A stretch of DNA of 47,513 bases, the filler included, from Jimgerdemannia flammicorona (taxonomy: Eukaryota): the NCBI GenBank assembly GCA_003990765.1. It is 2 parts of 2 records of this genome, joined end to end, with 100 filler letters (N's around TTAATTAATTAA, not from the genome) between each part and the next. Parts side by side here need not be neighbours in the genome. Positions count along the whole stretch, not along the records: positions 1 to 23,708 come from RBNJ01001074.1; 1 more part is not named here. The stretch is one strand, 5' to 3'. The notes under the pieces are model-generated. The model was not told the origin of the DNA, made no database searches, and was given only the letters and a program-made list of their open reading frames with translations. The position numbers and the translations under genes are program-made. Position 1 is the first letter of the stretch. Each line of letters begins with the position of its first letter. Below, one piece after another: positions 1 through 38,751 of the stretch.

Positions 1-224
1 GTCCTTTACTCACCTACTTTGAATCTACTTTGTTTTCTATTGGTTAGTTAGGGGGTTTTTTTTATCTCAGACTTTTTTTTGGAGTTTGGGAACTATTTTT
101 TATTCAGTTCCAGTATTGCTAGATCTTATATATAGGTGTACTCTCATATGTAGTCACAATTATCTAGTCCTGATGAGCAGACAAGTCTGGTCTATATTAT
201 AGAAATCAGCATAGTTAGTATCTA

Positions 225-368
225 ATAAATATAGCTAGAGTAGTGAGACTGCTGAATAATTTAGTAGCCTAGATTAATAGGGGGATAATGTTTAGTGGGT
301 GATAGAAGAGGGTTTCAGCCTATATAGTCTAGGTTCTCTTTTAATAAAAATCTGCAGAACTATAAGTC

Positions 369-406
<38 letters not shown>
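225..406 (+). mobile_element. 3' end of poly(A)-tailed retroposon (copy 1 of a family with 5 copies in the window)
   Basis: About 160 bp similar to 19455-19608 and 21655-21860 (...ctatatagtctaggttctcttttaataaaaatct...), followed by an A-run at 373-406. Confidence 0.8.
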
Positions 407-409
<3 letters not shown>

Positions 410-429
410 CTACAAGTCTAGTCTCTTTT

Positions 430-1690
430 CAGAAAAGCAGTTAAATATAAGTCTCTACTACTAAGAATCTTATAGATAAGATAGATGAACTACTTAAGAT
501 TGCTACCATAAATCTTCAGAAAACCTAATAGTATCAAGTCAAGTATACTAATAAGAAATACCAAGATATTACTTATACTATTAGTAATTAAGTTCTACTA
601 TCTACTGAAAATCTCAAGATATAATCTCAAGTTAACTGTCTGTCAAATAAATTTCAACTCAAATATATTGGATCCTTTGAGATTACTGAATAAGTCTATA
701 TCCTTCTACACTCAGTCTTTTATATATCATATCTTAAGACTTAAAATTAGTCACTACTCTATCCTAATTAAATTCTCAAGCTATCTGTCTCTATAATTAT
801 TAAAAACCATATTGAGTATGAGATTGAGAAAATTCTTGATAAATGAATCTGCTACTACTATTCTGAATATAATACTATCTGAGAACTATTAGTTAATCTC
901 AAGAACTTCCAAGATCTAGTCTAAAACTTTGAGACAAAATATATTACTTAATTTCTATAGTGACTTTCTTGGATTATTAATGATCTATAGTAATAATCAG
1001 TACCTTATATATCAGAAGTTTACTTTGGGACTCTAGAATTAGTAGTATATCTAGTAAATAAGAAGTCACTGAAATGAAGCTACTAGTTGGATTCAAATCT
1101 CTCTTAGTTAGTCTGATAATAGGCCCTCTACTCTATATAAGAATGGCCAGTCTTTGCCAATGTATTGAGAAATTTTAGTTAAGTATATTTAGTCTTATAT
1201 AATCTAAAAACTTAATATAGATATTAGTTCTTAAGAAAAGAGGAATATAATAATTTTATAGTTATATTTTAGTCTTAATACTTTTTTTATCTTTTCTCTA
1301 GTCTTTTCTTATCTTTTCTTGAATATTCCACTATGTTCTAGTATCTTTCAAATACCTATAAATCTTTTCTTAGTACTAAGATATCACTAGAACATTCTTA
1401 TCTTTTTGGTGCCAAGTATCTTATCTTAGCTAATTATAGAACCTTTTGAAATATTATAGAATTCTATTAGTTATCTTTACTAAAAATCTATTTCTTAGCT
1501 TTTCTCTTCTTTCTAAGATCCTTTTAGATCTTTTTTTCAGATCTTATATAAATATCCTTATTTTCTGCTTGAATAAAGCTCAGAATGTTTTCTCCCAGAA
1601 TTTCTTTAAGAATACTTAAACTTATAGGTATCTCTTTGAGCTATCTTGAACTTACTAAAACTATCAGATTTAGCTACTTTCTCTTAAAGA
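430..1690 (+). mobile_element. Degenerate chromovirus (Ty3/Gypsy) 3' end: integrase C-terminus, chromodomain and probable 3' LTR
   Basis: KFQLKYIGSFEI (GPF/Y motif, ~650-685) and HIEYEIEKILDK*ICYYYSEY (chromodomain, ~808-870). Purine tract aagaaaagaggaata at ~1233-1247 resembles a PPT. The LTR extent is uncertain. Confidence 0.7.
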
Positions 1691-1699
1691 AACTAGAAC

Positions 1700-4600
1700 T
1701 ATTATAAGCTGAAATAGATATTGCTACGGTTGAGGAGACAATTCTTGAACTCCAAACAATCTCACTATTTATAACTAATCTAGAAATAACTATTTTTAAG
1801 AACTATATCAGAATACTTAAGACAAAAAGTGACCTAGCCAAAAGTAAAATTTCTATTGAAAGAGAGATCATTAATTCTAATTATATATATTAGAGAAATT
1901 CTACTTATTACTAGAAATTACAACTCTATAATTCTATTTATAATTAAGAAAAAGAACTGACTGATACAAATGCTAATCTTTCTAGTTTATAACTCAAGAT
2001 CCTGGAAGTAAAGAAATTAGAGAAAACAGAAAGAGAAAGAAAAGAATTTGAATCTACAGAAAGAGGAGTTTTTATTAGCATCAAGATTACAGAACTAGAT
2101 CATAGGAAGAAGAAAACTATAGATAAGTATAGCTATACTATTGGAAACAAATTTCTATTTAAAAAGGAACTCAAGAAGCTTTTAAAGATATTCTGATCAC
2201 TGACTTCAAGAATATTAAAAAAAAAAATAACACACTACTATTATAATATAGATATAGAAGATATAAAGCTAATTTACTAAAGAGTAAGACCAATCTTACC
2301 AGCTTATCATAAATGGCTCTGAGAAGAAATAAAACAAATAAAAAGAAGCTGACATCATTAAAAAAACCATTAGTCTATAGTTTTTATCAATTATATTTGC
2401 TCTGAAGAAAAAAAAATAAATTGAGAGAATTTACTTTAAGACTCTGTATAGATTACAGAAAACTCATTTAGTAACCAAGAAGAATTATTAATCACTACCA
2501 CTTATTAGTAATATTTTGATAATACTAGAAGATAAAGTATAATACTATACTATTTTAGATTTATACTTAGGATTCTATCAAATTAATCTTATAAAACTAG
2601 TGAAAAGTTAGTTTTTATTATCTCAGACAGAATCTATATCTATCTATAAATACTATTTAAAATATATAATATACTAGTAAGCTTCTAGAGAATGATAAAT
2701 AAGATTTTCTATAATAATATAGAAAAATAGATAATAGTTTATATAGATAATATAATTATCTTTAGTAAGATGGTTCAGGAATATTTGAATCATATTTACT
2801 AAATTCTATAGAAACTGAGAAAGAGTAGTCTGTTTATCAAGCCCAAGAAGTATAAGTTTATAAAAATCAAGATCTTCTATCTTAGATATATTATTAATCA
2901 AACTGAAATCTATATAGACTTTATTAAGATTTAAGCAGTTATAGCCTACTCAAGATCCACTATAGTTACTGAAGCTCAAGTCTTCATAAGATTTACTATC
3001 TATTATAAGAGATTTATCAAAGATTTTCTAATATTACAGATCTAAACTATAAACTATTTAAGAAGAATACTAAGTTTTAATAGACCAGTAGATAGCAATA
3101 AGCTTTTGAATATCTTAAGATCTAATTGATCCAGATATCTATCTTGAGAAGACCAGACTAGTCTTAAGAGTTTATCCTATAGACAGATATAAACTTAGTT
3201 GAACTAGAAGCTATCCTTATATAAAAGAAGAATAAAGTTGAGTATATAATTATATATCTTAGCTAAGAAACTTATAAAGGAGAAAGAGAATATAAATTCT
3301 ACAAGTTAGAGTATCTTGCAGTCATCTGGACTATAGAAAAGTTCTACTAATTTTATAGGAAAATACTTCAGACTACTTAGCTCTTATCTGATTATTAACT
3401 ATAAGCAAACTTAAAGAAATATTTATCAGATAGATTATAAAGCTGTAAGCCTATAATATAACTATTATATACTACTCAAGAAGAATCAATACTAATATAG
3501 ATACTCTCTTATAGATACTCTGAAGAACTTATAACTAGTAAAACAGAAATAAATAAAAAACTTTACTACTAAATCATCACCTATCTAAAAAGTGAAAGAT
3601 GCCCCAATATTTAGAAAAATAGATATAAATAATTATTAACAGAACCTAGAAATAATTCAAAACTAATAGAGAAATACTAAAGAAAAGAAAACTACTAGTC
3701 ATACTAGAGTATAAGAAGGAATAAGCAATGAAGTCAGTATATAAACTTAGTCATCTAGAAGGAAAAAATATTTATAATAAAGTAAAAAGAACAATATGGT
3801 GGCTAGGAATAGAGGAAGATATCAGATGATTTGTCAAGATCTGTAACAAATATCAGAAACAGAAATAAGATCAATGAAATCAAATACTAGAATCATTATA
3901 TATAGAACTAGTATTATTTATATATATTATAATAAATATATATAATTAATCCTTTACTCATAATATTGATTGATAATTAATATATCATTATTATTATCAA
4001 TCTCTTTATAAAATAAATAGAAGTATAATTTTTAAAGAAAGTTAATACATAGTCAATTACTGATTTCTTCTATAGATAAATTATCTGTTAATTTAAGATC
4101 TCAAAGTAAATAACAACAGATAGAGAAACAGAATTTATAAATCAGCTCTTTGAGGTTCTCTATAAGAAGTATAAGATTTAGTATATTCAAATTATAGCTT
4201 ATTATTCTCAAGAAAATAGATAGATAAAAAGTACTAATAAGACTCTTATAAATATTATTACTAAGATCTGTATAACTATAAAAATTAGAACTACTATCTG
4301 CCAATAGTATTATCTACTCTTAGATATATATAATTACAAAGTACTTATTTTATCTCTCAGGAATTACTGTTCAGAAAAGAAAGTTCTAAAATAATTTTAT
4401 TATCTAATAGAGATATAGTATAGAAATAAGTAAATACTAAGATATAAAGATTATATTAACTAAGAAAGAAGACTGAAGATTATATAATTAAGATATAGAT
4501 ATTATATATAATAGAATAATATAGAGAAGATTTGTAAACTCTTAGAGATTATCAAGATAAGAGATAAAGTTCTAGTATATTAGAATATAGTAGAAACTCT

Positions 4601-5330
4601 ATATTTATAAAAACTAGGGCCTAAGTAGAAAAGACCTTATCTTATACAAAATATAAAAGAAACTATCTTTTGGCTATAGAAACTATTAGTCATAATCATC
4701 CTCACTATTATCTACTGAAACTAACTTAAGAAATACTATAGCTAGTTAAGAAGTACTACTATAGCTCTCAAGATCACTAGTACTATCCAGTAAGCTATAG
4801 AAAGATAATACTGTTCTGCTGAGCTACTAGATATTGAGAAATTATTTGATAGTATTCAAAGTATCATATAGACTCACTTATTATATATTTTATACTTTAA
4901 AATCTATCAAAACTATATTGAGTTTCAAAAGTACTTTAAGTTGAGACAATTACTAAATAAGAAGAAGAATATAACTAAAGAATAATAGATTACTGAGTAC
5001 TAGATATTATATACTCATATTACTATTATTAAATAGATTTACAAACTATTTAAGAATAATTAGCAAGTTCTGGTCTATTGTCTTAGGAGATTTCAGACAA
5101 ATGAAAAGATATCATTGAGAGAATATAATTGAACAGATCATATAGTATAAGAATATATAACTAATAGAAGCTTAAGAGTTTGAATAAGATGATTTAGAGA
5201 TAAAATCACTTATTCAGAAGAAAGTTATAACAGTTGATCTAAATTAGAAAATATGATCAGAAGATAGATATTTGATTATAGTATCTAAATCTAATTTCTA
5301 ATATAGTATAATATTATAGTTAGTAGTTAT
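1700..5330 (+). mobile_element. Heavily mutated Ty3/Gypsy pol remnant, domain order dUTPase-RT-RNaseH-integrase
   Basis: dUTPase remnant ~1710-2065 (AEIDI...KTKSDL...IINSNY...EREGKEFES-like end); RT LRLCIDYRKL (~2440) and IVYIDNIIIFS (~2735); RNaseH FIL*TD...KLEYLAVIW (~3170-3330); integrase Zn-finger HLEGKN...WWLGIEEDIR*FVKICNKYQ (~3750-3860); GPY-like KLGPK*KRPY (~4610-4640). Many stops. Confidence 0.9.
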
Positions 5331-5499
5331 TTGATCTCACAGTTGTATGATTTATATAATCATACAAAAAACACAACTATATAAAACTTATAATTATATA
5401 GATATATAGATGTATAATTTGTATAGATATATAGATCTCATATATAATAGAAAATAGACTTATTATAGTCTGGGACTAGTGAGTGAGGTAGTTTTATAA

Positions 5500-8400
5500 G
5501 AGGTAGGCAGTTTAGATGTATTTTTTTTAATATTAGTTTAGCCTTCTTACTGGGCCCTACTGGTCTCTCAACTCTATTATAGAATACTACTAATACAGTA
5601 CTTCTATGCAGAGCCAGGGTATTTGAGAGATCCAAACCTATACTAGATTCTGATTACTTGAAGCTACTTTTTATAGTTAGTAATAGGGCTGCAAATTCTG
5701 TAAGCTCTTTCTATTAATTCTCCTTTTTTATCTTTTAGCTACTTGAGATTATACATATCTTACAGTAGATAGAGGGCTGCAAATTCTATATACTCTCTCT
5801 ACTAATTCTCATTTTTCATCTAGTATCAACTACTTAGAATTGCTCTTTGTAGCAGATAAAGGGCTACAAATTCTGTATACTCCTTTTGCTGAATCTTCTT
5901 TTACTTTCTAACTACTTAAGGTTACTCTTTGTAGCAGATAGAGGGCTGCAAATTCTATATACTCTCTCTATTGATTTTTCTTTTTTATCTTTCAGCTACT
6001 TGAGATTACTTCTTACAGTAGACAAGAACTGCAAATTCTATATACTCTCTCTGCTGATTTTTCTTTTTTCCTTCTGGCTACTTAGAGTTGCTCTTTGTAT
6101 CAGACAAAGGACTGCAAATTCTACATACTCTCTCTACTGATTCTCATTTTCCATCTGATACTAGCTGCTTGAGATTGCTCCTTATAGCAGACAAAGGGCT
6201 GTAAATTCTGTATACTCTTTCTGCTAAATCTTCTTTTACTTTCTGGCTATTTGGAATTACTCCTTATATAGACAGAGGATTACAAATTCTGTACACTCTC
6301 TCTGCCATTTTTTTTATACTTCTCAATTTGTCAAAATTATATTTTTCTAAAGAAACTCTATTAAAAAAATTTATTCTATATTAATTATATAAATCAGCAG
6401 CCCATATATTACCAAAACTTTAAGCATATATAAACCTAGATTGCCTCAGTATTAAGTATATATCTCTTGAAAAAAATGAGGTTCTTTCTATCAGAGAATA
6501 CTCTTTCAACTAGAGCACTGATAGCAGAAATAGCCAGATAGTCTCACACTATACTACTTAGGTTGAAGAAGTCTATTTATTATACCTATGGCTATATATC
6601 CTCAAGATAATTGATAGTTAAAAACCATCAGCCCAATTCTATCAACTATCTATAAGAAGACAACCCACCTTCTACCAGTTAAGTATCTCTATACTCTCCA
6701 GCAGAATTATCTAGTTACTGACCAGATAAAGGATTAATTCATCTATTAATTAAAGTGCTTCTACTAATTGTTCTCTCTTTCTTTTTCTACTATTATAGTA
6801 AATATATAATAAAAGAGTTTTTTTAGTATATTTAACTAAACTTCAGCCAGAACCTTGTAGTAATATATACATAGTTCTTCTGATATGTTTTGATTATAGC
6901 CTGCTTTACTTCTTCAATATACTACTGCTCTTAGCTCTAATATTTATAGTATTAGAGCTTTAAGTATAGATCCAATACTATATAAAAAGAGTGAGTTTGA
7001 TAGAGAGTTTTTTTAGATGAGAAGGGTGATAATGCTTGCTTACTAATACTGATTGAGAAATTGATAGTATCTGTTTTAGAGTAATATTTTCTAAGCTTGT
7101 TCAAGGCAGTCTCTATAGTATATCTCTAAATCAGACTCAGTTAGAATTTACTGCTATCCTTCAGCTTGTCCTCTAGTTAGTTAATCGAGAGATTATATAT
7201 ATACTGAAATTACAGAGCTTATTATTAGAATAACTTGTTTGATTATTTTCTTTATATATTTATTGAAACACTGATAGATAAAAATAGCAAATAGTTACAA
7301 TGCTATATAGAAGAAGGAGAGAGTGGCTAAAATAAATTCAGAGCTAAAGCAGTCTTCTATATACTTCCAAAACTCTAAAAATACTTCTCAATATATCTCA
7401 CTCACCTTCATCAATAGTCTCATCTTATAATTCTTATTAGTAGTAACTGTGAAATCTATTGACTTTGTTTTAATTTTTTTTTTTTTTTAAATTTAATTAA
7501 TATATCTCAACTAATTGAAAACTAATTTATATTAGTTAACCAAAAAGTACTAACTATAGTAAACTCTAGCATATATTTAATTATTATATATATTAGATTC
7601 TAATAAGTATAGATATCTAATATCAGCTCTTTCAGAACTAAACCAATAGCTCTATACTATGTAGCAAATTTGTCTCATTATCACAAAGATGATCAGATCA
7701 TTATAATCAATTTATATAGTATAAAAATAATACTTAGATTTTTACCACTAATTCCAACTTTACCTCAGAATATTTTGTCTATATATAAGATAATCCTATA
7801 TAGTAAGATTCAGTATATAGATCTAATAATATATATGATAATTTTCTGTATTAAAGAGTATAATTTCCTATTAAAGATTAACTGCTAAAATATGGAAAAA
7901 TGTTATATTATTTGTAGCATTATCAATTATAATGATTGAAATCTGTCTTTGAAATTTTCAAAAAATAATTTTATAGAAAAATAATTTTAAAATAATAAAC
8001 TATTAAAAAAAAAAAAAGTCTTTTATTTAGTTTTCTCTAACTAGAAAATAGTAAATCTCCTCCCCTTTTATCTTAATTATGATCTCAAGCTCATAGATAT
8101 ATTTAATAAAAGTATCTATAATATTTTCTTCTAAATAAGAACTCTCAAGTTTGATAAAGTTGAAAGTAAGAGATTGAAGCCATTAATCAATGTCAATTCA
8201 ATAATCAGTAATGCTCAGAAATAAAATAGCATTAAGAGATATCTATATATTGATTGTGAATGAAATTCTGCCTACTAAATTCTATTTATTTGATGTGAAA
8301 TTAAATTATTGAGCCTTTTTTTAAAGGGGGAGAGAGATTACAATATTATGATATTATTTAAAATATCTAGTAGAGATTGTTATACTCTTTTCTATAGACC

Positions 8401-8520
8401 TCTAGAATATTATTATGAATAGTATCAATACTTAGCAGATATAAATCATACTTGAGGAGACTAAAGATATCATTTAATTAGTTACTCTTAATAGTTATAA
8501 ATAATTGATTTATATATTGT
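5500..8520 (-). mobile_element. Older, truncated and strongly mutated hAT transposon copy (transposase pseudogene ~6400-8500)
   Basis: Collinear with 11500-14620 of the complete hAT (e.g. 6840 cttcagccagaaccttgt = 12964; 8450 cttgaggagactaaagat ~ 14567). Differences are mostly C>T/G>A. Confidence 0.85.
5650..6305. repeat. Tandem array of ~8 units (~90 bp) internal to hAT copy 1
   Basis: Recurring core gctacttgagattgctc...gcagatagagggctgcaaattctatatactctctct; homologous to 11640-12350. Confidence 0.85.
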
Positions 8521-9009
8521 AACAATTAATTCAAATTAGTAATATAAATCAGAAGAATAGAGATTTAATTATAGTATCTAAATCTGATTCCCAAATATAG
8601 TATAGTCTTACAAATAGTAGTTATTTTACAAATATTAAAGTTTTAACAAATATTAAAGTTTTCACAAATATTGAGATTTCACAGATATTAAATCTTAATA
8701 ATTATCAAAGATTTAATAGATGTTAAGGATTAACACTTGTGAAAAGTGACTCATAGAAAATATAGTCATAACTTAGCCACCTTATAGCTAGTAAAACTTA
8801 TATAAATATCTCTAGTATCTAGAATGAATAAACCTTATATTGAAATAGTTCAAAGCAAAGAGAAAGTAAGAGAACTAGTAAGCCTGTGGGCAGATATACT
8901 TCAAACTCACCTACTTTTACATTCTGAAGACTCTGTAAAGTTAAAGAAGATAAAGTTTTCAAGATACAGAGATCTGATATACTTATCCAGTTATAGTGCT
9001 CTGAATGAA

Positions 9010-9245
9010 TGGAGTTGATCCAGATTTGATTCGATTCAGGTTCATCATGTGATGGATTTGAATCAACTCAGTGATCTGATCCAGATTGATCTGGATTGAT
9101 CTGGATTGATTCATCTGGATTGATCCATCCAGATAATCCATCTGGATTGATCCATCTGGATGATCCATCTGGATTGATCCATCTGGATGATCCATCTGGA
9201 TTGATCCATCTGAATGATCTATCCAGATAATCCATCCAGATTGAA
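9010..9245. repeat. hAT left subterminal repeats (gatccatctggatt/gatccagat)
   Basis: Dense 10-24 bp repeats adjacent to the TIR; the CpG-intact version (gatccggatgggatt) is seen at 23155-23265. Confidence 0.8.
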
Positions 9246-9321
9246 ATCTTTGGTGACATCACCCTTTCTTTTGTTCCCTCTCTTTTCTTTATTCTTTTTC
9301 TTTGTTCTTTCCTGCCACATC

Positions 9322-11385
9322 ATGAGCAAACAAAACAGCAGCCCTTAATTCATATGTTAGTCCAGTCTACTCATTTTTTACCCTATAATGATCATCAAAA
9401 GAGGGAGTATTCAAGGTGGAAACACACTCTCTGCTGATAATATTAGATTCTTTCTCATATGGGCAGCATACAAGCTGCTCATCAAGAGCCAAAGGAGTGA
9501 TGGTAGTGGCGATGGTGATGGTAATGACAATGGTGAGAATAAGGGTGAATTCCAGCAACAACTTATGGTAGCCCTTTGGACCTCGGAATTCACAGACCTC
9601 ACAGCTATGTATGTGGCAGCCTTTTTAGAGCAGCCAGTAGTAGATGTAGGTTGCTCTTTTCTGCTACTTCTTTTTACTTATTTAAATTCACCCAACATGA
9701 CCCAATTTACCTTGTGCTCTTCTTAGTGTCTACAGCTCTACACCGAGATCTGCTAACTTTATTCACAATATCTGGTCAAGATGAAGAAAAATTGGAGGAT
9801 ATTGTGGGACATGCCTTTGGTGGCTGAGCTGTTGAGTCAATATATCACGTAGCAGAGGTCTCAAAAGGAACAAAAGTAAGCCTTCATGAGCAATCTTATA
9901 CAACTCGTGCAACTCGTCAGCATGCAACTCATTGGTATATAGCTCACTCACTCACTCACTCACTCATGCTCTTTTTCTGAACTACCCATTTCTGTGTTTT
10001 ATTTAATTTCATTTTTTACATGGTCTCTCCCTAAAAAACACCCACACCCATACACAACCTACTTGTATGCAACCTATCCGCATACAACCCATCCACACAC
10101 TTATCTTGGTCTCTCAGATCAGGGCTCAGTTCCATTGGAAAAGAGAGTTCAAAGTTACCCAAGTTCAACCATGTCTGGCATCTGATCAAATAGAGAAGTT
10201 CAAGAGCAAGATATTTAGCATGAGCAGTACCAGCATCATCATCAAGGCTTAGGGGTCTACATTCGAATCAGAGCCAATCATTCTTGACCAAGAGGTCCAT
10301 TGGCCAGCAGGAGTAACCAATGATGAAGAGAACTATATCTTTATTAACAAATGTGGAGAGGTGGTTGCGATAGTGGTAAGGAATCTCTATGGTGATGAGC
10401 TTTGCCACCACATCAATGAGATTTGTGAGGATTATGTCAAATACCAAGTGGCAGAAAAGAGGGGGCGAAAAAAGCAAGGAGGGGGGGGTTTGGATGGGAA
10501 TTGGATATACTGCAACACTGGTGAAGAGTGGGTTCCAGAGTTCTGAAATCCTCTGTACTCATCTCTCTTTTTTTTTACTCCTCTCTAGATTAATCACACT
10601 CTTTGCTGATATACTCTTTTTGATACAAATCCAGGGATGTACAAGATTCTGTACCCCTACCAGAACTTTAGAAGTACTATTGAAGAGCAAACTATGTACA
10701 AGCATGACATGGTCTGTGTGGCGATGGCAGCTATGATCTGGGGTTCTTTGAGCAGATTGGTAGAGCATATGGCAGGCCAGCTTAGTAGTGATCTTGGCAT
10801 GGCTGTACATACATTCTTGGTGCAATTTAGTATACCATATAAGGTGAGGAGCTCTACTTTTTTGAGGTGCTATAGCCCAGGGGGTTTCTGTAGCCTGGGG
10901 GATTTCAGCAGCCTGGGGGGTTTCTGCCCCCCTACATGCAAAAAGGACTGACTGATTGCTGTCTATTTTGGCAGGTTTCCAAGCTGGGGCTCCTAGGGCT
11001 GAACCAAGGACAGGCATCCACTAGTACAGCCTGACAGTATGAGGTCCTGGGTCAAGGATTCACTCAACCATATGCTCGCATCACATTAGGATATATCAGG
11101 CACAATCTTTCTCTACCCATACACACAGACAACAATGTCATCCTGGTAATGTTTTACATTCTGAAAAAGAAGGGCCCAATCTGAGAGGATAGTAGCAGAG
11201 TCTGGTATGATCTCACCTACAGTTTCAGGGTCTTGTTTGTGGCCAACATGGCTATCCTCTTCTAACTACACAACCACCATGGCACCATCGCCTTTGAGGA
11301 GAGCTCGGACACAACAGTCATCGTACTTACAATAGATGACAGGCTCATCAAGGCCTGGGACCAGTGGGTGGAGCAGTTTTTATGA
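9322..11385 (+). pseudogene. Multi-exon cargo gene in the hAT; putative TET/JBP-like 2OG-Fe(II) dioxygenase, inactivated by transition stops and frameshifts
   Basis: ATG at 9322; GT-AG introns ~9646-9726, ~9876-10117, ~10528-10634, ~10844-10974. Last exon reads ...HNLSLPIHTDNNVILVMFYILKKKGPI*EDSSRVWYDLTYSFRVLFVANMAILF*LHNHHGTIAF...WDQWVEQFL*, with HxD at 11122-11130 and HGT at 11278-11286. Upstream motifs are YIFINKCGEVVAIVVRNL and GVWMGIGY. Confidence 0.6.
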
Positions 11386-11639
11386 GGGTTAAGCAATCTT
11401 TCACAAGGGATAGGTAGTCTGTCATGAGGGTTAGGTAGTCATTTTGTATAAGTTGGGCAGTCTTATATGAGGGGTTGAGCTAGGTGCCTCTTCTGTAGCA
11501 CTAGCTTAGCCATTATGCAGGGCCCTACTAGCCCCTTGGCCCTGCTCTGCAGTGCCACTGGTGTGGTGCTGCAGTACAGGGCCAGGGCACCCATGGGACC
11601 CAAACCAGTGATGGGGCCCAAATCTGTAGTGGACTTCAA

Positions 11640-12350
11640 CTACTGGAAATGCTCTCCGACTACCAGAAGCACCCTCTGACTGCCAGAAGCACCCTCCATC
11701 CCAGACTCCTTGGCAACTTGGAGCTGTCCCATATGCTACTGGTGGAGGGCTGCAAATTTTGTATGCTCCCTCCATCTGCCCTATCTATCTCAGATACTTA
11801 CAGCTCAGGGCTTTCCCTTGTTGCTGGCAGAGGGCTGCAAATTTTGCATGCTCTCTTACCAACCCCATGCCCACCAACCCCACCAACTGACTCCACCTAC
11901 TGACCTAGGTACTGACAGCTTGGGGCTACCCCTCACTGCTGGTGGAGGGCCACAAATTTTGCGCGCTCCCTCTGCCTACCCTGCCTGTCCCATACACTTG
12001 CAGCTCAGGGCTGCCCCTTGCTGTCGGCAGAGTGCCACAAATTTTGTATACTCTCTCCACTGACCCCATACCCACCAACCCCACTGACCAACTCCACCCA
12101 CTGACCCAGGTGCTGATAGCTCAGGCTACCCCTCGCTGCTGGTGGAGGGCTGCAAGTTTTGTATGCTCCCTCTGCCAACTCCCCTGACTGAGACACTTGT
12201 GGCTTGGGGCTGCCCCTCACTGCCAGTAGAGGGTCATAAATTTTGCACACTCTCTCCACTGACCCACTCACCAACCCGGGCACTGACAGCTTAGGGCTAC
12301 CCCTTGCTGCTGGTGGAGAGCTGCAAACACTGCACACTCCCTCTGCTGCC
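11640..12350. repeat. Tandem array of ~8 units (core ~55 bp, periods alternating ~85/~115 bp) between the cargo gene and the transposase 3' end
   Basis: Core cagctcagggctgccccttgctgctggcagagggctgcaaattttgtatgctccctc at ~11715, 11800, 11916, 12001, 12117, 12200, 12287. Confidence 0.9.
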
Positions 12351-12499
12351 ACCACCAACCCTGCTGACTGCTGCCCACTTGGGCCGCAAACTCCAGGCTG
12401 AGTCTTCAGGGTTTTTTACCTTTTTATTATTTTTGAAAGGTATTAAATATTCCACAAGGCCAACCAACTTATCTGCAAACCCCCAGGATCTACCGAATT

Positions 12500-15100
12500 T
12501 TAGCAACCTGAGCCCCACCAAGACTTCAGATACATATATGCCCGGATTGTCTCAGTATTCAGCATACACCTCTTTGGGGCAACGAGGTCCACCCTACCTG
12601 AGAACACCTGCTTGATGGGAGCGCTAGAGGCAGAAATTGCCAGGTAGTTCCGAGCTATGCTACATAGGCTGGGGAAGTCTGTTTGATGTAGCTGCACACC
12701 CCGGTGGATAGAGCAGTGGTTAGATTGGTGGGTTAAATTGGCCCAATGCCCACCTGACAATATCCACCTGATAACCCACTACCTGATAACCCACCTTCCA
12801 CCAGTTGAGTACCTCCACACTCTCCAGCAGGATTACACAGTCACTGGTAAGGTAAATAGTAAGTTCATCTATTGATGGTAGCTCTTCCACTAACAGCTCC
12901 CTCTTCCTCTTTCTGCTGAAGTAAATGTGAGACAGGAGGGATCCCTCAGCATATTCATCCAGACTTCAGCCAGAACCTTGTGGCAGTGCATAGTTTTTCC
13001 AGTATACTTCAATTACAGTCTACTTGGTTCTCTCAATGAAGTGCTGCTCCCAGCCCTAATCTTTATGATATTGTAGCTTTAAGTGTAGGTCCAGCACTTT
13101 TCGAAGAAGAGGAAAGAGTGAGCTTTTGCAGGGATTTCTCTGTTTTGGAAGAGGTAATGGCCACACACCAACATTGACATACCTGTACTGATTGAATATA
13201 TAGTGGTATCTGTTTGAGAGTAGTACTTTCTGAGCTTGCTAAGAGTAACCTCCACAGTGTCTCTCTGATCTGAGCTCAACCGTAAATCACCACAACCCTC
13301 CAGCCTGTCCTCAAGCTTGTTCTCTAGCCAGTCAATCAGAAGGTTGTATACTGGTATTGCTGAGCTTATTGTCAGGGTCATTTGTTTGACTATATTCTTT
13401 GTACAATTGTTGAAACACTGGCAGTTATATGTGGTGAGGTGTTGTATTGTACAGAGGCTGACAAAATGAGTATAGAGGCTGATAAAATGAGTGTGGAGCC
13501 AGAGCAATCACCACTTCTAAAACTCTGATAACATTCCTAAGTACATCTCACTCACTTTCACCTAGAGCCTTGGCCCATATTTCCTTGTCGGTAGCCACTA
13601 TTGAATCTATTGGCTATTTTTGTTTTTTTTTAAAATAAATCATCTAAAACAAGTTATTTCAGCTGACTGAAGAAAAAAAAGATGTATATCACAGCAAACT
13701 CCAGTGTATGCTGGATCATTACAAATGTTGAGTTTCAACAAATACAGACATCCAATATAAGCTCTTTCAGAGCTAAACTGATTGTCCTATACTGTGCAGT
13801 GAATTTGTCTCATCATTGTGGAGATGATCAGACTGATACAACCAGGTTGCACAGCTTGGAAATTATACTCAGAGCCCCTCCTCTCTCAGATGTTTTGTCT
13901 ATGTGTGTAAGATAGTCCTAAACAGCGAGGTTCAGTATGTAGGTCTGGCATCACATATGACAGCTTTCTACACCAAAGGCCATATTTTCCTGTTTGAGGC
14001 TGGCTGCTAAAACTTTGAAAAATATTGAGTTGTTTGTAGTATTGTTCGTTGTAATGGCCAAAATCTGTACTTGAAATATTCAGTTGGCAAATTTATGTGA
14101 AAATAAATAACCAATAAAATCTGATTTGTTTTAGGACCTCTCTCAAAATACTGACCTAATGGCAAGCCCCCCTTTTTTACCTTAGTTGTGATCCCAAGCT
14201 CTTGGATATAACTAATAAAAGCATCTGTAATGTTGTCTCCAGAATGAGGGCTAGCAAGTTTGACAAAATCAAGGGTAAGAGATTTAAGCTGCCAATCGAG
14301 ATCAATCCAATGACCGGTAATGCCCAGAAACGAAATTGCATTGGGGGATGTCCATGTATTGATCATAAATGAAATTTTACCTGCCAAATTCTACTTATTG
14401 AATGTGAGGTTAAATTGGTGAGCTCTTTTATATAATTCAGCTTACAAAGGTCATGGTACTGCTCTTATTTTACCTGAAGTATCTGGCGGAGATTATCATA
14501 CTCCTTCCTATAGGCCTCCAGGACATCTTTGTGAATAGTATTGGCACTTGGCAAATATAAATCATACTTGAGGAGGCCAAAGATGCTATGCAATTGATCA
14601 CTCTTGATGATTATGAATGGTTGGTCTGTGTATACAATCTAGTGAATGAGCTGATTTCGAAATTCTGCCAAAGAGTATAACTAAATATTTTTGATTAAAT
14701 GGCATTGTTGGTACAGAAATGGTCAGGCAATCAGATAAACATACCCACCACAGCTTGTATGTCAATTTTATTTATCTCCATATTCTTTTTGATTTTGTCA
14801 GAGTGCTTGTCTTTTATGTGTTAATTTATATTCCAAGTCATACTCACAAGCATTTTGAACTTCTGACTGATGCAGTTTATGGGGATGGATGAAATAATAT
14901 CATGTGTATATTGAAACAAACAAAAAGTGTCAATAGGTGCATCTTAATTTTTTACCTACAATAATTACAAACAATATCATCTCCTATCTTAGTATAATGT
15001 TGCCAGATTTTGGAGTGAGAATTGTATAGAAGGTGTAGAACTATCAGGGATATTTGACTTGAAGCATCATTGGTACTGTGAACTGTTGAAGACTGATCTG
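12500..15100 (-). pseudogene. hAT transposase (BED finger, DDE core, C-terminal dimerisation domain), intron-containing and mutated
   Basis: SKIWQHYTK...IVCNYC (BED finger, ~14955-15015); KISFMINTWTSPNAISFLGITGHWID...HSGDNI (14180-14380); FPSLCSIARNYLAISASSAPIKQVFS...LKSW (dimerisation domain, 12515-12680). Confidence 0.93.
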
Positions 15101-15214
15101 TCAACATATATGTTTGTATGTTTGCATGTGCATGTGTATACATGTATGTGTATTGTATATACATGTATGTATATTGTATTGTAGACACATCCAATATATG
15201 AGTTATATAGAAGA

Positions 15215-15535
15215 TTTGGATTGGAGGATTCAGTTGAAGGATTCAGATAAGGATTCAGATTGAAGGATTCAAATTAGAGAATTCAATTTGGAGAATTCAA
15301 ATTGGAGGATTCGGATTGAGTGATTTGGATTAGGTGATTTAGATTGAGTGATTCAAATTGAGTGATTCAAATTGAGTGATTTGGATTGAGGTAGTTCAGA
15401 TTGGTGATTCGGATGAGATGATTCAGATGGGGTGATTCATATTAATCCAAGTTGATTTAGATGGCTTCAGATTTGAGATTCAGATCAAACTGTCATATGA
15501 TGAATTGAATCTGGATTTGATTCGAATTGACTTGT
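15215..15535. repeat. hAT right subterminal repeats (ggattcagattg/gtgattcaaattg)
   Basis: About 20 degenerate 14-15 bp units next to the TIR. Confidence 0.8.
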
Positions 15536-15554
15536 TCGGAGCACTACCCAATTA

Positions 15555-22808: not shown

Positions 22809-23276
22809 TAGTACTCTGATAATCTTAGTGTTATTTGAAAGCCCTTAATAAGACCTTTCTAATGATACCAAGAACATTAAAATCAGATTACATGTTGCTG
22901 AGCTATTAAGGAAAACATTCTTTTGAAGAAATTTCCAAAATTGGCAAGTTGAATAATTTCCAAAATTGGTAAGTCAGACATTTTCCTTGATAACCCAGCA
23001 ACATATGATCCAGTTTTAATGTTCTTGGTATCATTAGAAAGGCCTTATTAAGGGCTTTCAAATGACACCAAGACCATCAAAATTGGATGATTATTCATAG
23101 AGTTATTGATGTAAACATTTAATTGTCTAATTTGGAAATCAAAACAATAGTTGATTCGAATCGATCCGGATGGGATTCGAATCCCATCGAAGTTGATCCG
23201 GATGGGATTTGAATCCCATCCGAGTTGATCCGGATGGGATTTGAATCTGATCCGGATCAGTTCATTCGGAGCACTA
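22809..23276. mobile_element. 468-bp non-autonomous hAT element (MITE) sharing TIRs with the 6.5-kb hAT
   Basis: Ends tagtactctga and ttcggagcacta; 8-bp flanks gaaatttc and ggaatttc; subterminal gatccggatgggatt repeats; inserted in a ggaatttccata tandem tract. Confidence 0.7.
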
Positions 23277-24914: not shown

Positions 24915-26093
24915 ATGAAGCCCTCGAACAACCCCCCTCTCTCACGACCACTGATTCTCTTGACCGCCATGCTAACCCTTCTGGCCGAAGCGAGCCTCGC
25001 ATACCCAACCACAGGAAACAGGTAAAAATCAACCTCACGCTCCCCATTACGCTACGCCACCTCTCTCTCCCAATAGTTTCCTCACCTGTCTCCCCTCCCC
25101 TCCCCTATTCCCCCGCGTCCCCCCAGCTCGCACGCCTCGGCAAAACGCGCTCCAGACATCTACTCGTCTGACGGCACAGTGCTGATCTTTGTGGTCGTGA
25201 CAATCGCAATCATCTTGCTGAGTTGCTGCGCCTGCGCGTGGTACCAGAACAGCCGGTACATCCGCGAACAGAACGAACAGAACCGCGACGCCCCACCAGT
25301 TCGGCTCGAACCCATCGTCCCCCAAGACCCGACTATAGACGATGATTCATCTGTGAATCCATCTTCTTTTGCACCGTCGCCGTCGCCGCCGTATAATGCG
25401 ATACCGGCCGCAGGAGAGAGCGTAGTGGCCGTTGGGCCGAATGGAGCGCCCGTCAGTGGGGCTGGTGGAACACCGGCCGAGGGAGAGAGCGTGGTGGCCG
25501 TTGGGCCGAATGGAGCGCCCGTCAGTGGGGCTGGTGGAACACCGGCCGAGGGAGAGCGCGTGGTGGCCGTTGGGCCGAATGGAGCGCCCGTCAGTGGGGC
25601 TGGTGGAACACCGGCCGAGGGAGAGCGCGTGGTGGCCGTTGGGCCGAATGAAGCGCCCGTCAGTGGGGCTGATGGAACACCGGCCGAGGGAGAGCGCGTG
25701 GTGGCCGTTGGGCCGAATGAAGCGCCCGTCAGTGGGGCTGGTGGAACGCCGGCCGAGGGAGAGCGCGTGGTGGCCGTTGAGCCGAATGAAGCGCCCGTCA
25801 GTGGGGCTGGTGGAACGCCGGCCGAGGGAGAGCGCGTGGTGGCCGTTGGGCCGAATGAAGCGCCCGTTGGTGGGGTTGGTGGAACGCCCGAGGGAGAGCA
25901 CGTGGTGGCCGTTGGGCCGAATGAAGCGCCCGTCAGTGGGGCTGGTGGAACGCCGGCCGTTGGGTCTGATGGAACGCTGGCCGTTGGGTCTGATGGAACG
26001 CCGGCCGTTGGGTTGAGTGGAACGTCGGCCGGTGGGTCTGATGAAACGCCGGCCGTTGGACTGGGTGGAACGTCGGGCGTTGGGACCGGATAG
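24915..26093 (+). CDS. Two-exon gene for a signal-peptide, single-pass membrane protein with a cytoplasmic 23-aa tandem repeat
   Basis: Exon 1 24915-25021 (MKPSNNPPLSRPLILLTAMLTLLAEASLAYP), intron GT 25022..AG 25126, exon 2 25127-26093 in frame. KR dibasic site, TM segment VLIFVVVTIAIILLSCCACAW, then repeats of AVGPNGAPVSGAGGTPAEGERVV. Confidence 0.8.
25413..26080 (+). repeat. Coding minisatellite: ~7.5 x 69 bp followed by ~5 x 24 bp
   Basis: Unit gagagcgcgtggtggccgttgggccgaatgaagcgcccgtcagtggggctggtggaacaccggccgagg; then gccgttgggtctgatggaacgccg. Confidence 0.95.
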
Positions 26094-27470: not shown

Positions 27471-28595
27471 TCATCGCCGTCGCCCGTCTTGGTGACATGC
27501 ATCGGCGATTTGCTTCCTGATATCTTCAATCTGTTTCTCGAGGTCTTCGATGGCATCGATTGCGCGAATAAGCAACGTGCTGGCATTGTCTGATAACAGT
27601 GATTTGGATACCGATATCATTATCATATACTATGCATAATTAAATAAAATATATTAAAATGTAACTACTCACCTTCCTCGACCATTATAAACAAGCGCCC
27701 GGCATCGTATAATTCGCCTAATAATTGAAGTGCCTTACGATTTGTTTGGACAAATCGTCGTACTTTTTCGGAAGCATTTTTAGGAAATCCTAAAAAGATA
27801 TACAAGGTTAACGAAAGTAAAAAATTGTGTTCACGAAGTGTATGAAATACTTTAAAGGACTTGGCATACATACCGACAAAAACGAAAGCAAAAACATCGC
27901 ATGCCTCCAATTCGGAATCGTTTCTTGCTTCCCTCTGCGCAACAAGCAGATAACAGAGATCTCGCTCAAGCTGAAGAAGCTTTTGGTCACACAATTTCGG
28001 GTCTTTTGATACTTCGCCTACGATATATCGTTGAGGTTCCGTATCCGAGAAAGGCGATTGACTCCGTTCCGACCTACAAAAATATTTAGAAAATTAAAAA
28101 GTGTACAAAATAAACTTTGATATTACAGACATAATGAAAGACGTACCCATCATGCATTATCTCCATCTTCGGATTTAGGTTCTTCATTCTCGAGTCTTGT
28201 TTAAAAGCGATTTCATCGGTAGCATTGACAATTGCTACAATATCTACCTCGAAATTATTGAAACCAAGTGCGTCTCGTTCGGCATCTGGGGTATCTTGCC
28301 AGAGTTGTACGAAGGACTTTGCCTCTTTTAAGGATGCTTGTGATCCCTTCTTTTTGAGAGTTAAGTGTGTCGAGTTTAGGGGCGGTGCTTGAGGTTGATC
28401 TATGTCGTTGTCTCGCTTTTTGATATAATTTTTTGTCTCCTCGATGGTGGTTACGTTGTCAAAAGTGCGTCCATCGACTTTCAGACCTTGAACGCAAAAA
28501 CCGATGGATGACAACGAGAGTTCTTCTTTAAGAGTGCGCCGACAAATATCCTCGTATAAATCCGCGGCTTGTTTTATAAGAGCAAGAGCCGTCAT
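27471..28595 (-). CDS. Paralogue A: 4-exon gene (~294 aa) with a putative PD-(D/E)xK-like nuclease domain and a short coiled coil; frameshifted heptad remnant downstream to ~27290
   Basis: Exons 28595-28147, 28073-27874, 27789-27673, 27589-27471 splice in frame with GT-AG; motifs LYEDICR, FEVDIVA, YIVGEVS, KLLQLER. Confidence 0.7.
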
Positions 28596-29379
28596 GATTA
28601 GCACAATGGAATCGTAAGCTCAAGCGCGACCTTATATATGATTTACAAATTTATTTAGCATAGTATATAAACTATTAATAGCACCTCTTGACTCACGATG
28701 ACGATATTTCGTTTATATTAATAGTTGTGAGAATTTGAATTTGAGAATCTCAATCTGAGAACTTATGTCGGAACCTTATATGTCCTTGACGGAACCATAT
28801 TTGTAATTCTTACGCTATGAGTAGGAGCCGCAGCAGAGAGCGGAGGTTAATCCCCCCCCACCCATGACTTGGCAAGGTATGCTAGCAATATACTCTAGTT
28901 TTTTACATGAAAGCTGTAACTGGGTTTGTAGTTCTAGACCCTTTGTCGGTCCAGTAACTATAGGTAATTACAAGCAGTCTTGACATTCCTAATTATGTCC
29001 GTGGGTGCAACTCTATTATTTTTGACCAAGTAACTTTGAGTATATCGCCAAAAGGATTCATCCACTTTTGTTTTCGTGACTCAATGACAACAGATACTAT
29101 GACTACTATGTGAAAATCTCTATAAAAAAAAAAAAAACTCTATTCTTTTATAGAATGTTACCTGGGAGACCAAGATATTATTTTCACGTAATTATATTTT
29201 TCAACGCGTGTATATATATAACTCCACAAAACAGCCATGATAAGAAAATAAAGTTAAAAAAAAAAAGGGGCTCAATCCAATCGTTCCGGCCTTGATGTAG
29301 CAAAGCACTTCACATGACCACCCCCAGATTGCGAACCCTGCATACGAACCGGTCAAATAGGTGTTTGTAAGACATAGGG

Positions 29380-32124: not shown

Positions 32125-34492
32125 TCAAGCATGGTTTGATGCTCTCGACGTTGGTCTTGATATTATCAACGTCCGTTTTGGTTTTTTCCACCACGGCAAT
32201 TTTGGTTTCTTCGTCCGTTTTGCTGCTTTCAATTTTTTACCGTCCGACTTGACGTTCTCGACGTCCGTCCTGATCTCATCGTCCGTCTTGACGTTTTCAA
32301 TGTCCGTCTTGATCTCTTCGTCTGTCTTCCGCGTCACTCTTGATTTTGGTTTCTTCGTCCGTTTTGCTACTTTCAACTTTTTACCGTCTGACTTGACGTT
32401 CTCGACGTCCGTCTTGATCTCATCGTCCGTCTTGACGTTTTCAATGTCCGTCTTAATCCCATCGTTTGTCTTCCGCGTCACTCTTGATTTTGATTTCTTT
32501 GGCTGAATTAATGCCCTCAACATCTCAATGTTCGTCTTGACGTTCTCAACATCCGTCTTGATCTCATCGCCTGTCTTGACGTTCTCAATGTCTGTCTTGA
32601 CGTTTTCAATGTCCGTCTTGATCTCACCGTCTGTCTTCCGCGTCACTTTCGATTTTGATTTTTTCGGCTGAATTAATGCTCTCAACATCTGAATGTTCGT
32701 CTTGATGTTCTCAACATCCGTCTTGATCTCATCGCCCGTCTTGACGTTCTCGATGTCCGTCTTGATTTCATCGTCCGTCTTAAGGTTCTCAATATCCGTC
32801 TTGATCTCATCATCTGTCTTCCGCGTCACTTTTGATTTTGATTTTTTCGGCTGAATTAACGCTCTCAACACCTCAGTGTCCGTCTTGACGTTCTCAACAT
32901 CCGTCTTGATCTCATCGCCCGTCTTGACGTTCTCAATGTCCGTCTTGGTCTCATCGTCCGTCTTGACGTTTTCAATATCCGTCTTGATCTTATCGTCCGT
33001 CTTCCGCGTCACTTTTGATTTTGGTTTCTTTGGCTGAACTAATGCTCTCAATACCTCAATGTCCGCCTTAACGTTCTCAACATCCGTCTTGATCTCATTG
33101 CCCGTCTTGACGTTCTCAATGTCCGTCTTAATCTCATCGTCCGTTTTGCTGCTCTCAACGTCTGTATCGTTCGTATCGATGCTAGCGTCTGTATTGATGT
33201 TCTCAGTGTCCGTATTGATGTTCTCAACGTCCGTCTTGATATTCTCAGCGCCCTCCACCATTTTCGAATCGCCGATTTGATTCTTGATAACTGCAATTTC
33301 TTTTCCGAGTTTTTTGACAACATCGAATGCGTGAAGAAGGACCGTACAGGCATTTCCTGATAACAATGATTTGGATACAATTGTTAGTATTATATTATAA
33401 TTCATGTTTGAAAATATTATATTTAAAATATAACTACTCACTTTCTTCAACCATGATATAAAAACGCTTGGCGTTATATAATTCGTTTAACAATTGAGTT
33501 GCCTTACGATGTTGTTGCAAATATGACCGTATTTTGTCAGCCACGTCTTTAGGAAATGCTGAAATATATTCAAGATTAACGAAAGTAAAAAAGTAAAAAA
33601 ATTGCATAAAATACTTTAAGGACGTGGTATACATACCGACAAAAGCCAGGGCAAAAACATCGCATGCCTGCAATTCGGAATTGTTTCGTTTTTTTCTCTG
33701 CTCAACAAGCAGATAACAGAGAATTCGCTCAAGTTGAAGAAGCTTGTGGTCACACAAATTCTCGTTCACTGATACTTCACCCACAATATATTGTGATATA
33801 GAAGGACGAGGTTCCATATCCGAGGAATTCGATTGACTCGGTTCCGAACTATAAAGGATGTTAAGGAAATTAAATAGTGTATACTATAAACTTTACTAAA
33901 TAAATATATAATAATAAAAAACATACCTTTTGGATTTTTTGGCCTTTTTCGAATTTATGGAAATCATTCTCGACTTTTTTCCGAAAGCGATTTGTTCGGC
34001 AACATCGACGTATGCCAAAATATCTGCCTCCAACTTATCGAAAGAAAGCCCACCGGTGTTCTTTGACTCGGTATCTTTCCAGAGCTGTGCGAAGGACTTT
34101 TCTACCTCATTTAAAGGTTGCTGTGCGAGATCGTCAATCGGTTGTCGTTCTTTGATATACTGTATTGTTTCGTCGATGATGGTTTTGTCGTTAAAATTGC
34201 GTGCTTCGAAGTTCTCATCTTGAGCGCAAGAATGGAAAGATGACGATGAGAGTTCTTCTTGAAGAGTGTGCCGGCACACGATTTCGTATAAATCTCCCGC
34301 TTGTTTGGAATAGGAAGCTTGTCGGGCAGCTTGTTGAGCAGCTTGTTGGGCAGCTTGTTCAACTTGTTTGGAAAGAATAGACAATTGTGCAGCTTGTTGT
34401 GAGAGAGCAGATAATTGTGCAGCTTGTAGCGTAGCTTTTTGTGCAGCTTGTTTTGCAGCTTTTTGCGCAGCTTTTGGTGAAAGAGTCGCCAT
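32125..34492 (-). CDS. Paralogue B: intact 4-exon gene (~708 aa): N-terminal QAAQ repeats, putative PD-(D/E)xK-like nuclease, long KTD(V/I)EN(V/I) heptad array, basic tail
   Basis: Exons 34492-33927, 33848-33637, 33558-33442, 33356-32125 total 2127 nt and are open throughout; canonical splice sites at the same positions as in A, C and D. Confidence 0.85.
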
Positions 34493-37805: not shown

Positions 37806-38751
37806 GCCTACCATTACTAGTTGCGTCGTTTCGAGGTGTACGGCTTTGACTTTTTTTTTTACTTTATTTGGCTTCCCATGGCTGTCGTGGTCCTCGTTAC
37901 TGGCGTAAGTGGGTCAACCCATGTGCATAATACCCTTTATTACATTACCGGAAGGATTCGCTTGAAGAGAGGGATCTCAAGTTGTGATCTCCGGAAGTAT
38001 GTAGCGGGACCGCGTCTCTCACTTCAGAAACTCAAGCTTGAATCCTGTGCGATCCGAGGCATGGTTGCTTAGAGGGAGTAACGTGAAACAAGCGGCATGT
38101 GCCGCCAACTCGTGATTTGAAGCTCACGATACCAACACTTTGATTTAATTAGCACAGATATGCCATTCAAACTGTGAATATGCTTATTAATGATCAGGAG
38201 TTTGTCATCAGGCTGAAAAATAATATGTTGGTCTCGGAGTAAACATGTTATCAATCGTTTTTTTTCCTCAATAATGGAGACTGTTACATTGTTAAATTGT
38301 TGGCCACAAAAGCGGAAATGGATGAATACTTTTGGCGATTCATCGTACAAAATTAATAAGGAGCACAGACATACCACCCCCCTTTCCCAAAGGCCGATTT
38401 TGTGGTAGTACTCGGATATTAATTACAAGGGATCCATCCTCGAACTTTATTTGATAAATCTCAGTACATGTACATAATGCCCCGAATGACTCCAATATGA
38501 ATTAAATCTTCATTCGAATTCGACCTTCGGGCCGGACCGTCGGCGGTAATCCAACATTTGCTTACTATTATGTTATTAAATTTATTTGCACGTAATCACA
38601 TGAATAACCCCTATTCTGTTAGTAGATATTCTAGTATATCAACGATTGTCATTATATCCTATAGTTTATATGTCACAATAATTGAATATGTAAATCAATA
38701 TAAAAGGTCGCACTTGAGCTCACGATTTCCTTGTCTATTGCGCTAATCATA

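Follow-up and report, generated by a model that had tools for sequence, protein, structure and literature searches.

An inactivated hAT transposon of Jimgerdemannia flammicorona with a candidate TET/JBP-like oxygenase cargo gene

We analysed a stretch of 47,513 nucleotides of the fungus Jimgerdemannia flammicorona (NCBI GenBank assembly GCA_003990765.1), called the window below. It joins two parts of two records of this genome end to end, with 100 filler letters between them; positions 1 to 23,708 come from RBNJ01001074.1. Region 8994-15546 of the window is a bounded hAT DNA transposon, now inactivated. Beside its transposase gene lies a second gene, referred to here as the cargo. In our preferred reading, towards which the evidence tips only slightly, this element with an 8-bp target-site duplication (TSD) belongs to a family that carries a spliced gene for a small Fe(II)-binding oxygenase of the double-stranded beta-helix (DSBH) type, distantly related to TET/JBP, that would oppose silencing by methylation. 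The cargo belongs to a genuine gene family, conserved and multi-copy, and is not a one-off capture. Its identity as a TET/JBP-like dioxygenase is moderately supported.

The element, its cargo gene and the relatives of the cargo

The initial annotation described a bounded hAT element with 12-bp terminal inverted repeats (TIRs) and an 8-bp TSD, and this description is borne out. The two TIRs agree at 11 of 12 bases and the sole difference is a transition. hAT TIRs typically begin with YARNG. The 8-bp flanks, TCCAGTTA on the left and CCCAATTA on the right, are identical at six of eight positions, both mismatches being transitions. A 7-bp duplication was also considered. The corresponding flanks, CCAGTTA and CCCAATT, disagree, and the 8-bp reading fits. 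Across the window, the TIR word with up to two mismatches gives six matches, against 3.1 expected by chance. Two exact matches and one match with a single mismatch correspond to both ends of the element and to one end of a small derivative, at 23265-23276. The left and right subterminal arrays, whose 14-bp units repeat at 9099-9223 and 15227-15443, are inverted relative to each other and are probable, still putative, binding sites of the transposase. The window is AT-rich eukaryotic DNA; its GC fraction is 23-30% at positions 1-9000 and 40-52% within the element.

On the minus strand, the Pfam model Dimer_Tnp_hAT (PF05699) matches region 12500-12778 with an E value of 1.6e-8 and 34.6 bits (cut-off 21.4). 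A zf-BED match at 14952-15242, also on the minus strand, is weak (E 0.037) and its 14.5 bits are under the cut-off of 20.6. For the core fragments (13079-13507 and 14007-14390), a Pfam search at E values up to 1 gave no match. The assignment to hAT relies on the PF05699 match, the TIRs, the flanks and the subterminal repeats.

Region 22810-23276 is a non-autonomous derivative of the same hAT family, about 467 bp long. On the right it ends in an exact copy of the TAGTGCTCCGAA TIR, on the left in TAGTACTCTGAT; subterminal repeats of the GATCCGGATGGGATT type are present. The flanks of the derivative, GAAATTTC and GGAATTTC, agree at seven of eight positions over 8 bp, but the site lies in a GAATTTCCATAG tandem repeat.

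The cargo gene is spliced and located on the plus strand, convergent with the minus-strand transposase gene. It had been placed at 9322-11385. The three exons from ~10244 onwards are supported by relatives. From 9322 to ~10240, no similarity was detectable to the upstream exons of L001, a relative on a metagenome contig, and this part of the proposed gene stands without detectable relative. Both motifs reported upstream of the last exon, YIFINKCGEVVAIV and GVWMGIGY, are found in exon A. Exon B is collinear with the spliced relative P0022. The last exon reads ...PIHTDNNVILVMFYI...HHGTIAFEE... and contains, as announced, the HTD and HGT motifs at a spacing of 52 codons.

This cargo copy is a pseudogene, disrupted by one frameshift and four in-frame stops. 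Exon A contains a TAG at 10250-10252 and an extra G within the run 10481-10488. The last exon contains three in-frame stops (TGA at 11032, TGA at 11182 and TAA at 11263), one more than the initial annotation had counted. P0001, the closest relative (70% identity over 130 residues), carries W at both TGA positions and Q at the TAA position. Each stop is therefore one transition away from a sense codon (TGG, TGG and CAA). The proposed origin of the TAA from CAA stands; the TGA sites correspond to TGG in relatives and not to CGA.

Table 1. Coordinates of the hAT element, its genes and the neighbouring older copy (window positions).
Feature	Position	Strand	Remarks
Left TSD copy	8986-8993		TCCAGTTA, 8 bp
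Left TIR	8994-9005	+	TAGTGCTCTGAA, 12 bp
Left subterminal tandem repeats	9084-9244		14-bp unit ATCTGGATTGATCC
Proposed 5' cargo exons	9322-10243	+	Open reading frame (ORF) fragments only; unverified
Cargo exon A	~10244-10531	+	Holds YIFINKCGEVVAIV and GVWMGIGY; tblastn/BLASTP to L001 exon, E 4e-11
Cargo exon B	10635-10843	+	AG and GT splice sites; weak likeness to L001 exon B (E 0.016)
Cargo last exon	10975-11385	+	HTD 11122-11130; HGT 11278-11286
Intergenic GC-rich tandem repeats	11400-12460		Between the two convergent genes; ~200-bp unit at 11739-12265
hAT transposase gene	12500-15242	-	In several ORF pieces: 12500-12778 (hATC domain), 14007-14390 (core), 14952-15242 (weakly BED-like)
Right subterminal tandem repeats	15213-15443		14-bp unit GATTCAGATTGAGT
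Right TIR	15535-15546	-	Reads TAGTGCTCCGAA on the minus strand, 12 bp
Right TSD copy	15547-15554		CCCAATTA, 8 bp
Older, transition-degraded family copy	5443-8990		Cargo 3' end 5443-5513, repeats 5665-6303, transposase ~6400-8500

A phmmer search with the last exon in a database of 1.84 billion representative proteins retrieved only three proteins, with 71, 42 and 28% identity. All are short ORFs of metagenome contigs and they belong to clusters of 1, 1 and 28 members. A profile search added four short proteins and P0022 (E 1e-45), an intron-free form of 259 amino acids in which the three cargo exons are joined in one frame. Longer relatives were searched for with P0001 as query and none was found; with the profile of alignment A2 as query, only P0022 was obtained. 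A scan of metagenomes led to two confirmed loci, L001 and L002, among 419 pattern matches. Both contigs carry the cargo gene and share its exon layout. In L001 all three exons are recognised, and its exon A matches pairwise with an E value of 4e-11.

In the alignment of these relatives (A2), the proximal His occurs without exception, in 12 of 12 rows. The HxD motif is kept except in three degraded rows that have N for D. The distal motif, HG(T/S) or HS, is kept in all 10 rows that reach the site, two of them having HS for HG. HxD...HG is retained across five diverged metagenome subfamilies having 28-71% identity. The HxD and distal His are conserved among these relatives, as the earlier hypothesis demanded, and deviations are confined to degraded rows. 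Another alignment made with trimmed rows, A5, placed L001 wrongly, and A4 was used instead.

In a distant subfamily, P0019, P0021 and L002 show D>N, G>S and R>C/Y changes as well as stops. The same transition-type decay thus acts on the cargo family in other organisms. On L001, the contig end at 3418-3664 contains short repeats of the AATCAAAT type that recall transposon subterminal arrays, and region 2320-3372, located 3' of the cargo, contains further ORFs without Pfam match.

Relationship of the cargo protein to TET/JBP dioxygenases

The relationship to TET/JBP was evaluated by profile comparison. A Tet_JBP profile was derived from seven phage proteins, Cooper gp2 and six relatives. As a positive control, Cooper gp2 matches PF12851 with an E value of 4e-6. 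Comparison of A4 with this profile using hhalign gave Prob 44.7 and P 2.3e-4 over 69 columns, with HxD and HG in register; overall, P values for the comparison with phage Tet_JBP fall in the range 2-5e-4. In this alignment, the cargo PxHxD is paired with PYHRD and HGT with HGVT. Extension of the alignment to the N-terminal GxxxGY motif yields zero-confidence columns, and no likeness is detectable outside the core. With our own profile-scoring script, the real score is 34.1. Shuffling columns (100 times) gave 20.9 at most and shuffling blocks (100 times) 24.6, and 0 of 200 shuffles reached the real score. Reversed profiles scored 16-17. A control profile made of nine 2OG-FeII_Oxy_3 paralogues of phage P-SSM2 scored 18.2 against A4 (P 0.077), that is, at background. 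As judged from these profiles, the cargo is nearer to Tet_JBP than to the prolyl-hydroxylase type, and the likeness is at the level of two families in one superfamily.

Searches in the ESM Atlas provided leads rather than tests. For P0001 (model pTM, the predicted template-modelling score, 0.59), 8 of 10 structural neighbour rows are clusters of 2-oxoglutarate (2OG)-Fe(II) oxygenases, with TM scores of 0.54-0.63. The best named feature match is the Tet-like family PF20515 (0.91, 178 shared features). For P0022, PF20515 and PF12851 are the only named families in the feature matches, each on a minority of cluster members. A literature search for PF20515 returned no paper.

Several results weigh against the assignment to TET/JBP. 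First, the Tet_JBP profile scores 32.0 against the 2OG-FeII_Oxy_3 control, near the 34 obtained for the cargo against Tet_JBP. This similarity of scores shows superfamily kinship, not family membership. Second, the direct check suggested with the initial annotation, a search for the Tet_JBP hidden Markov model, was negative. Neither PF12851 nor PF20515 matched the relatives, scanned in sets of 7, 7 and 1 proteins at E values up to 10, or the nine window-fragment proteins at E values up to 1, and no other oxygenase family of Pfam matched either set. Third, searches of PDB sequences at E values up to 10 yielded chance rows at E ~1 but neither a TET enzyme nor another oxygenase. A search of PHROGs gave nothing relevant. 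Fourth, the structural check suggested at the same time produced two AlphaFold2 models of low confidence, with pLDDT (predicted local distance difference test) values of 34.1 and 37.4, and these were unusable for establishing the fold. A Foldseek search from a low-confidence model gave weak rows, including the RNA/DNA demethylase FTO, P4H and PHD2 (E 0.04-0.2).

The last point against the assignment concerns the active site. In TET enzymes, an Arg located 9-15 residues past the distal His binds 2OG; in the published comparisons it is described as strictly or highly conserved and as essential, examples being CcTET R385, NgTET1 R289 and HsTET2 R1896 (PMC11040006, PMC7854593). No R or K is found at +9 to +15 of the distal His in any cargo subfamily (A2, A4). 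The absence of this Arg, first remarked in the window copy, is thus a property of all cargo subfamilies. Without the canonical 2OG-binding Arg, the protein would have to bind its co-substrate in another way than the solved TET enzymes do. Two other positions are basic or His in the cargo: counted from the proximal His, position -8 holds R (three subfamilies) or H (P0001 and window), and position +15 holds a conserved R/K. TETs have a second conserved Arg near the active site (NgTET1 R224, HsTET2 R1261). Altogether, the TET/JBP-like reading of the cargo is supported by the retained HxD...HG, the hhalign P value of 2.3e-4, the background score of the control profile and the Atlas neighbours, whereas the Pfam and PDB searches, the AlphaFold2 models and the missing 2OG-binding Arg lend it no support.

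The cargo could also be a DSBH Fe(II) oxygenase that does not oxidise 5-methylcytosine (5mC). Its target would then be N6-methyladenine (6mA) or thymine, or a protein, for instance a chromatin or silencing factor. Formation of a CMD1-like adduct, or use of a co-substrate other than 2OG, would be further options. We hold this alternative to be somewhat unlikely, while noting that the absence of the canonical Arg in A2 and A4, the inter-family level of the hhalign score against Tet_JBP and the many prolyl-hydroxylase-type clusters among the Atlas structural neighbours all agree with it. The same is true of the FTO, P4H and PHD2 rows obtained from the low-confidence model. Furthermore, the discussion of rust-type enzymes by Kojima 2025 (PMC12730594) leaves other activities possible. 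The prolyl-hydroxylase-type control profile nevertheless stays at background (18.2), and the named Atlas feature neighbours are Tet-like families only. Carriage by a DNA transposon, in a genome where repeats have decayed by transitions, fits a DNA substrate.

A more specific version of the TET/JBP-like reading may be considered. The cargo would represent an unclassified, Arg-less branch of TET/JBP-like proteins, invisible to Pfam, with a CMD1-like altered use of co-substrate or of 2OG. It would have been captured independently by a hAT with an 8-bp TSD, in a fungal lineage outside the three classes known for TET-carrying transposons, and would still be active in soil fungi. This last idea comes from the intron-free P0022 and from the many near-intact copies in environmental data. 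Taken as a whole, this version is doubtful.

Another reading, in which the cargo would serve the transposon as an accessory protein without enzymatic activity and HxD...HG would be structural or coincidental, is improbable in our view. The lack of any family match by hidden Markov model, of a confident fold and of a conserved 2OG-binding Arg would suit such a protein. It is hard to reconcile with an invariant proximal His, with the HxD Asp and the distal His occurring in every subfamily at 28-71% identity, with both motifs being in register with Tet_JBP beyond 200 shuffles, and with Atlas neighbours that are oxygenases.

Linkage to the transposase, decay and possible role

The linkage of cargo and transposase is supported by an older copy having the same order of genes and by the coverage of both genes in a set of environmental contigs. 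The older copy lies immediately upstream of the young element. Blastn aligns region 6659-8502 with 12785-14618 at 66% identity. Region 5443-5513 (71 bp) corresponds to the final 58 bp of the cargo ORF plus the next 14 bp. An alignment in which bases were collapsed to purines and pyrimidines follows the cargo 3' end, the intergenic repeats and the transposase with a score of 50, compared with at most 29 in 10 shuffles. These scores were obtained with a stricter Smith-Waterman scoring, the first scoring being so permissive that shuffles outscored the real sequence. The older copy thus shares the order of its parts with the young element: cargo 3' end, repeats, transposase.

On the 5' side of 5443, the collapsed alignment shows no cargo match (score at most 29, as in shuffles), so that the older copy is truncated or interrupted at this point. 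Neither a TIR nor a clear right end of the older copy was found in 5443-8990. One collapsed alignment carried the older copy into position 9264; this extension was rejected, since the quasi-palindromic subterminal repeats probably produced it artificially. The young element adjoins, or sits in the end of, the older copy of its own family, which could reflect a local hop or a nested insertion.

The environmental contigs come from one public sequencing run labelled soil metagenome (X1; word share 0.05) and are 150-220 bp long. X1 was the sole run listed as containing the sequence, and no RNA run was among the matches. At a likeness of at least 80%, 1662 contig pieces reach every one of the 30 bins of the element, in the cargo as well as in the transposase. 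Positions 10293, 11184 and 14158, for instance, are covered by 21, 15 and 16 contigs, respectively. At 11184, all 15 contigs have a G, which restores TGG. Five contigs have one G fewer in the run 10481-10488. At their length of 150-220 bp, none of the contigs bridges cargo and transposase. It also weighs against our preferred reading that a hAT transposase was not observed next to any relative outside the window; L001, 3.7 kb long, shows none.

The older copy, the X1 contigs and the metagenome relatives together show that the cargo is not confined to the element at 8994-15546, as the initial annotation had required. An incidental capture or nested insertion particular to this copy, with no role in the biology of the element, is very improbable: the traceable part of the cargo in the older copy is limited to 71 bp of the 3' end (5443-5513) and none of the metagenome relatives was observed next to a hAT transposase, but the old, independently inserted copy has the same order of cargo, repeat and transposase, diverged X1 contigs are as many over the cargo as over the transposase, and the distant P0003/L001 subfamily is itself multi-copy (28-member cluster, many contigs).

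Comparison of the copies shows how they decayed. The older and the young copies differ by 891 transitions and 258 transversions. Of these differences, 706 are C>T or G>A changes in the older copy, in all dinucleotide contexts. The GC content is 26% in the older copy versus 44% in the young one. Between the young copy and the X1 contigs, 491 of 519 differences are transitions, and the window more often has A or T. From this excess of transitions, it follows that the genome degrades repeats by cytosine deamination, either in a manner resembling repeat-induced point mutation (RIP) or driven by methylation.

These observations give a context for a possible function within the preferred TET/JBP-like reading. 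From its motifs, the intact protein is predicted to bind iron via H-x-D and the distal H. By analogy, it would oxidise a methylated DNA base, most likely 5mC, on or near the element. Such oxidation would oppose methylation-based silencing and the C-to-T decay that ensues, as has been proposed for published TET-carrying fungal transposons. We infer this anti-silencing role from the context and from precedent. A demethylase-like enzyme on a transposon would amount to a counter-defence against cytosine methylation and deamination. The window holds both sides of this confrontation, with a family that has many near-intact relatives and two copies here that were destroyed almost wholly by transitions. 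The young copy itself has lost the contest: its cargo is interrupted by the stops and frameshift described above, and nearly all of its differences from its relatives are transitions.

Other features are present in the window. Four paralogous gene copies, at 27665-28619, 33434-34558, 36119-37805 and 38704-40242, alternate in orientation and form a lineage-specific tandem family. Some of them are followed by long repeats of the KTD(V/I)ENVKTDDEI type, for instance in the minus-strand ORF 32125-33486. A GC-rich (65%) ORF of 338 amino acids at 25077-26093 contains about 10 tandem copies of a 23-residue unit (GPNGAPVSGAGGTPAEGE(S/R)VVAV); this region is open in several frames on both strands. Finally, the minus-strand ORF at 42069-43154 has a CCHC zinc knuckle and a gag-like region. 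It probably belongs to a copia-type long terminal repeat retrotransposon.

Comparison with known systems

The element resembles hAT transposons of the Ac/Tam3 type in its 8-bp TSD, its short TIRs starting with TAG, its subterminal arrays and a transposase with a C-terminal dimerisation domain and a possible BED-like N-terminus. It differs from them by the presence of a second, unrelated gene.

Among TET/JBP proteins, those of phages, Mycobacterium phage Cooper gp2 and its relatives (PF12851), share PxHxD and HG(V/T)T with the cargo, in register over 69 columns. The spacing between the two His residues is 50 there and 52 in the cargo. The phage proteins have the Arg of a YRxS motif past the distal His, whereas the cargo has none, and the similarity does not extend outside the core.

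CcTET and the AG-type TET/JBP proteins of Agaricomycetes, linked to Kyakuja/Zisupton transposons, also have HxD...H with a spacing of about 50 residues (H326, D328 and H376 in CcTET), and they too are associated with fungal DNA transposons. As described, CcTET has R385 nine residues past the distal His, as well as G331 and D337; at the equivalent offsets, all three are lacking in the window family. The transposons linked to the AG-type proteins also belong to a superfamily other than hAT.

A further comparison is offered by CMD1, the Chlamydomonas TET homologue that uses vitamin C. According to the published description, 2OG is not used and the basic residue does not hold the co-substrate carboxylate (PMC7854593). 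CMD1 is therefore an example of a TET homologue that has abandoned 2OG and binds its co-substrate in an altered manner. Unlike the cargo, it keeps an alignable Arg, R410, and is not transposon-borne. No sequence similarity between the cargo and CMD1 was seen in the PDB sequence searches at E values up to 10.

The closest parallel is found in rust fungi. The initial annotation knew of no hAT linkage, a view that is out of date. Kojima 2025 (Biology 14:1741, PMC12730594) describes TET/JBP genes inside complete fungal DNA transposons of many superfamilies, including 20 TET/JBP-carrying hAT families (hAT7, with a 7-bp TSD) in six Puccinia species. The author proposes that these genes let transposons escape methylation-based silencing. 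In the same account, the rust-type and morel-type enzymes were recognised only via HHpred and structure comparison. A literature search combining TET/JBP with Glomeromycota gave nothing relevant among the matches listed.

The hAT7 elements of Puccinia that carry a PU-type TET/JBP gene, as described there, and the window element are both fungal hATs with a TET/JBP-like gene beside the transposase. In both cases, the cargo is recognisable only by profile or structure methods, the genomes show methylation or RIP-type decay of repeats, and the same anti-silencing hypothesis applies. The difference, drawn from the published description only, is a 7-bp TSD in Puccinia versus 8 bp here and in the derivative at 22810-23276. 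The general phenomenon, hAT carriers included, is thus already in print; novelty is modest, and the value of the present case is one of extension and testing rather than discovery. Its 8-bp TSD and the lack of the Arg in its cargo may set the window element apart as a variant. The window adds a hAT carrier with an 8-bp TSD and a cargo family without the canonical 2OG-binding Arg. If active, such an Arg-less cargo would widen the known chemistry of TET-like enzymes.

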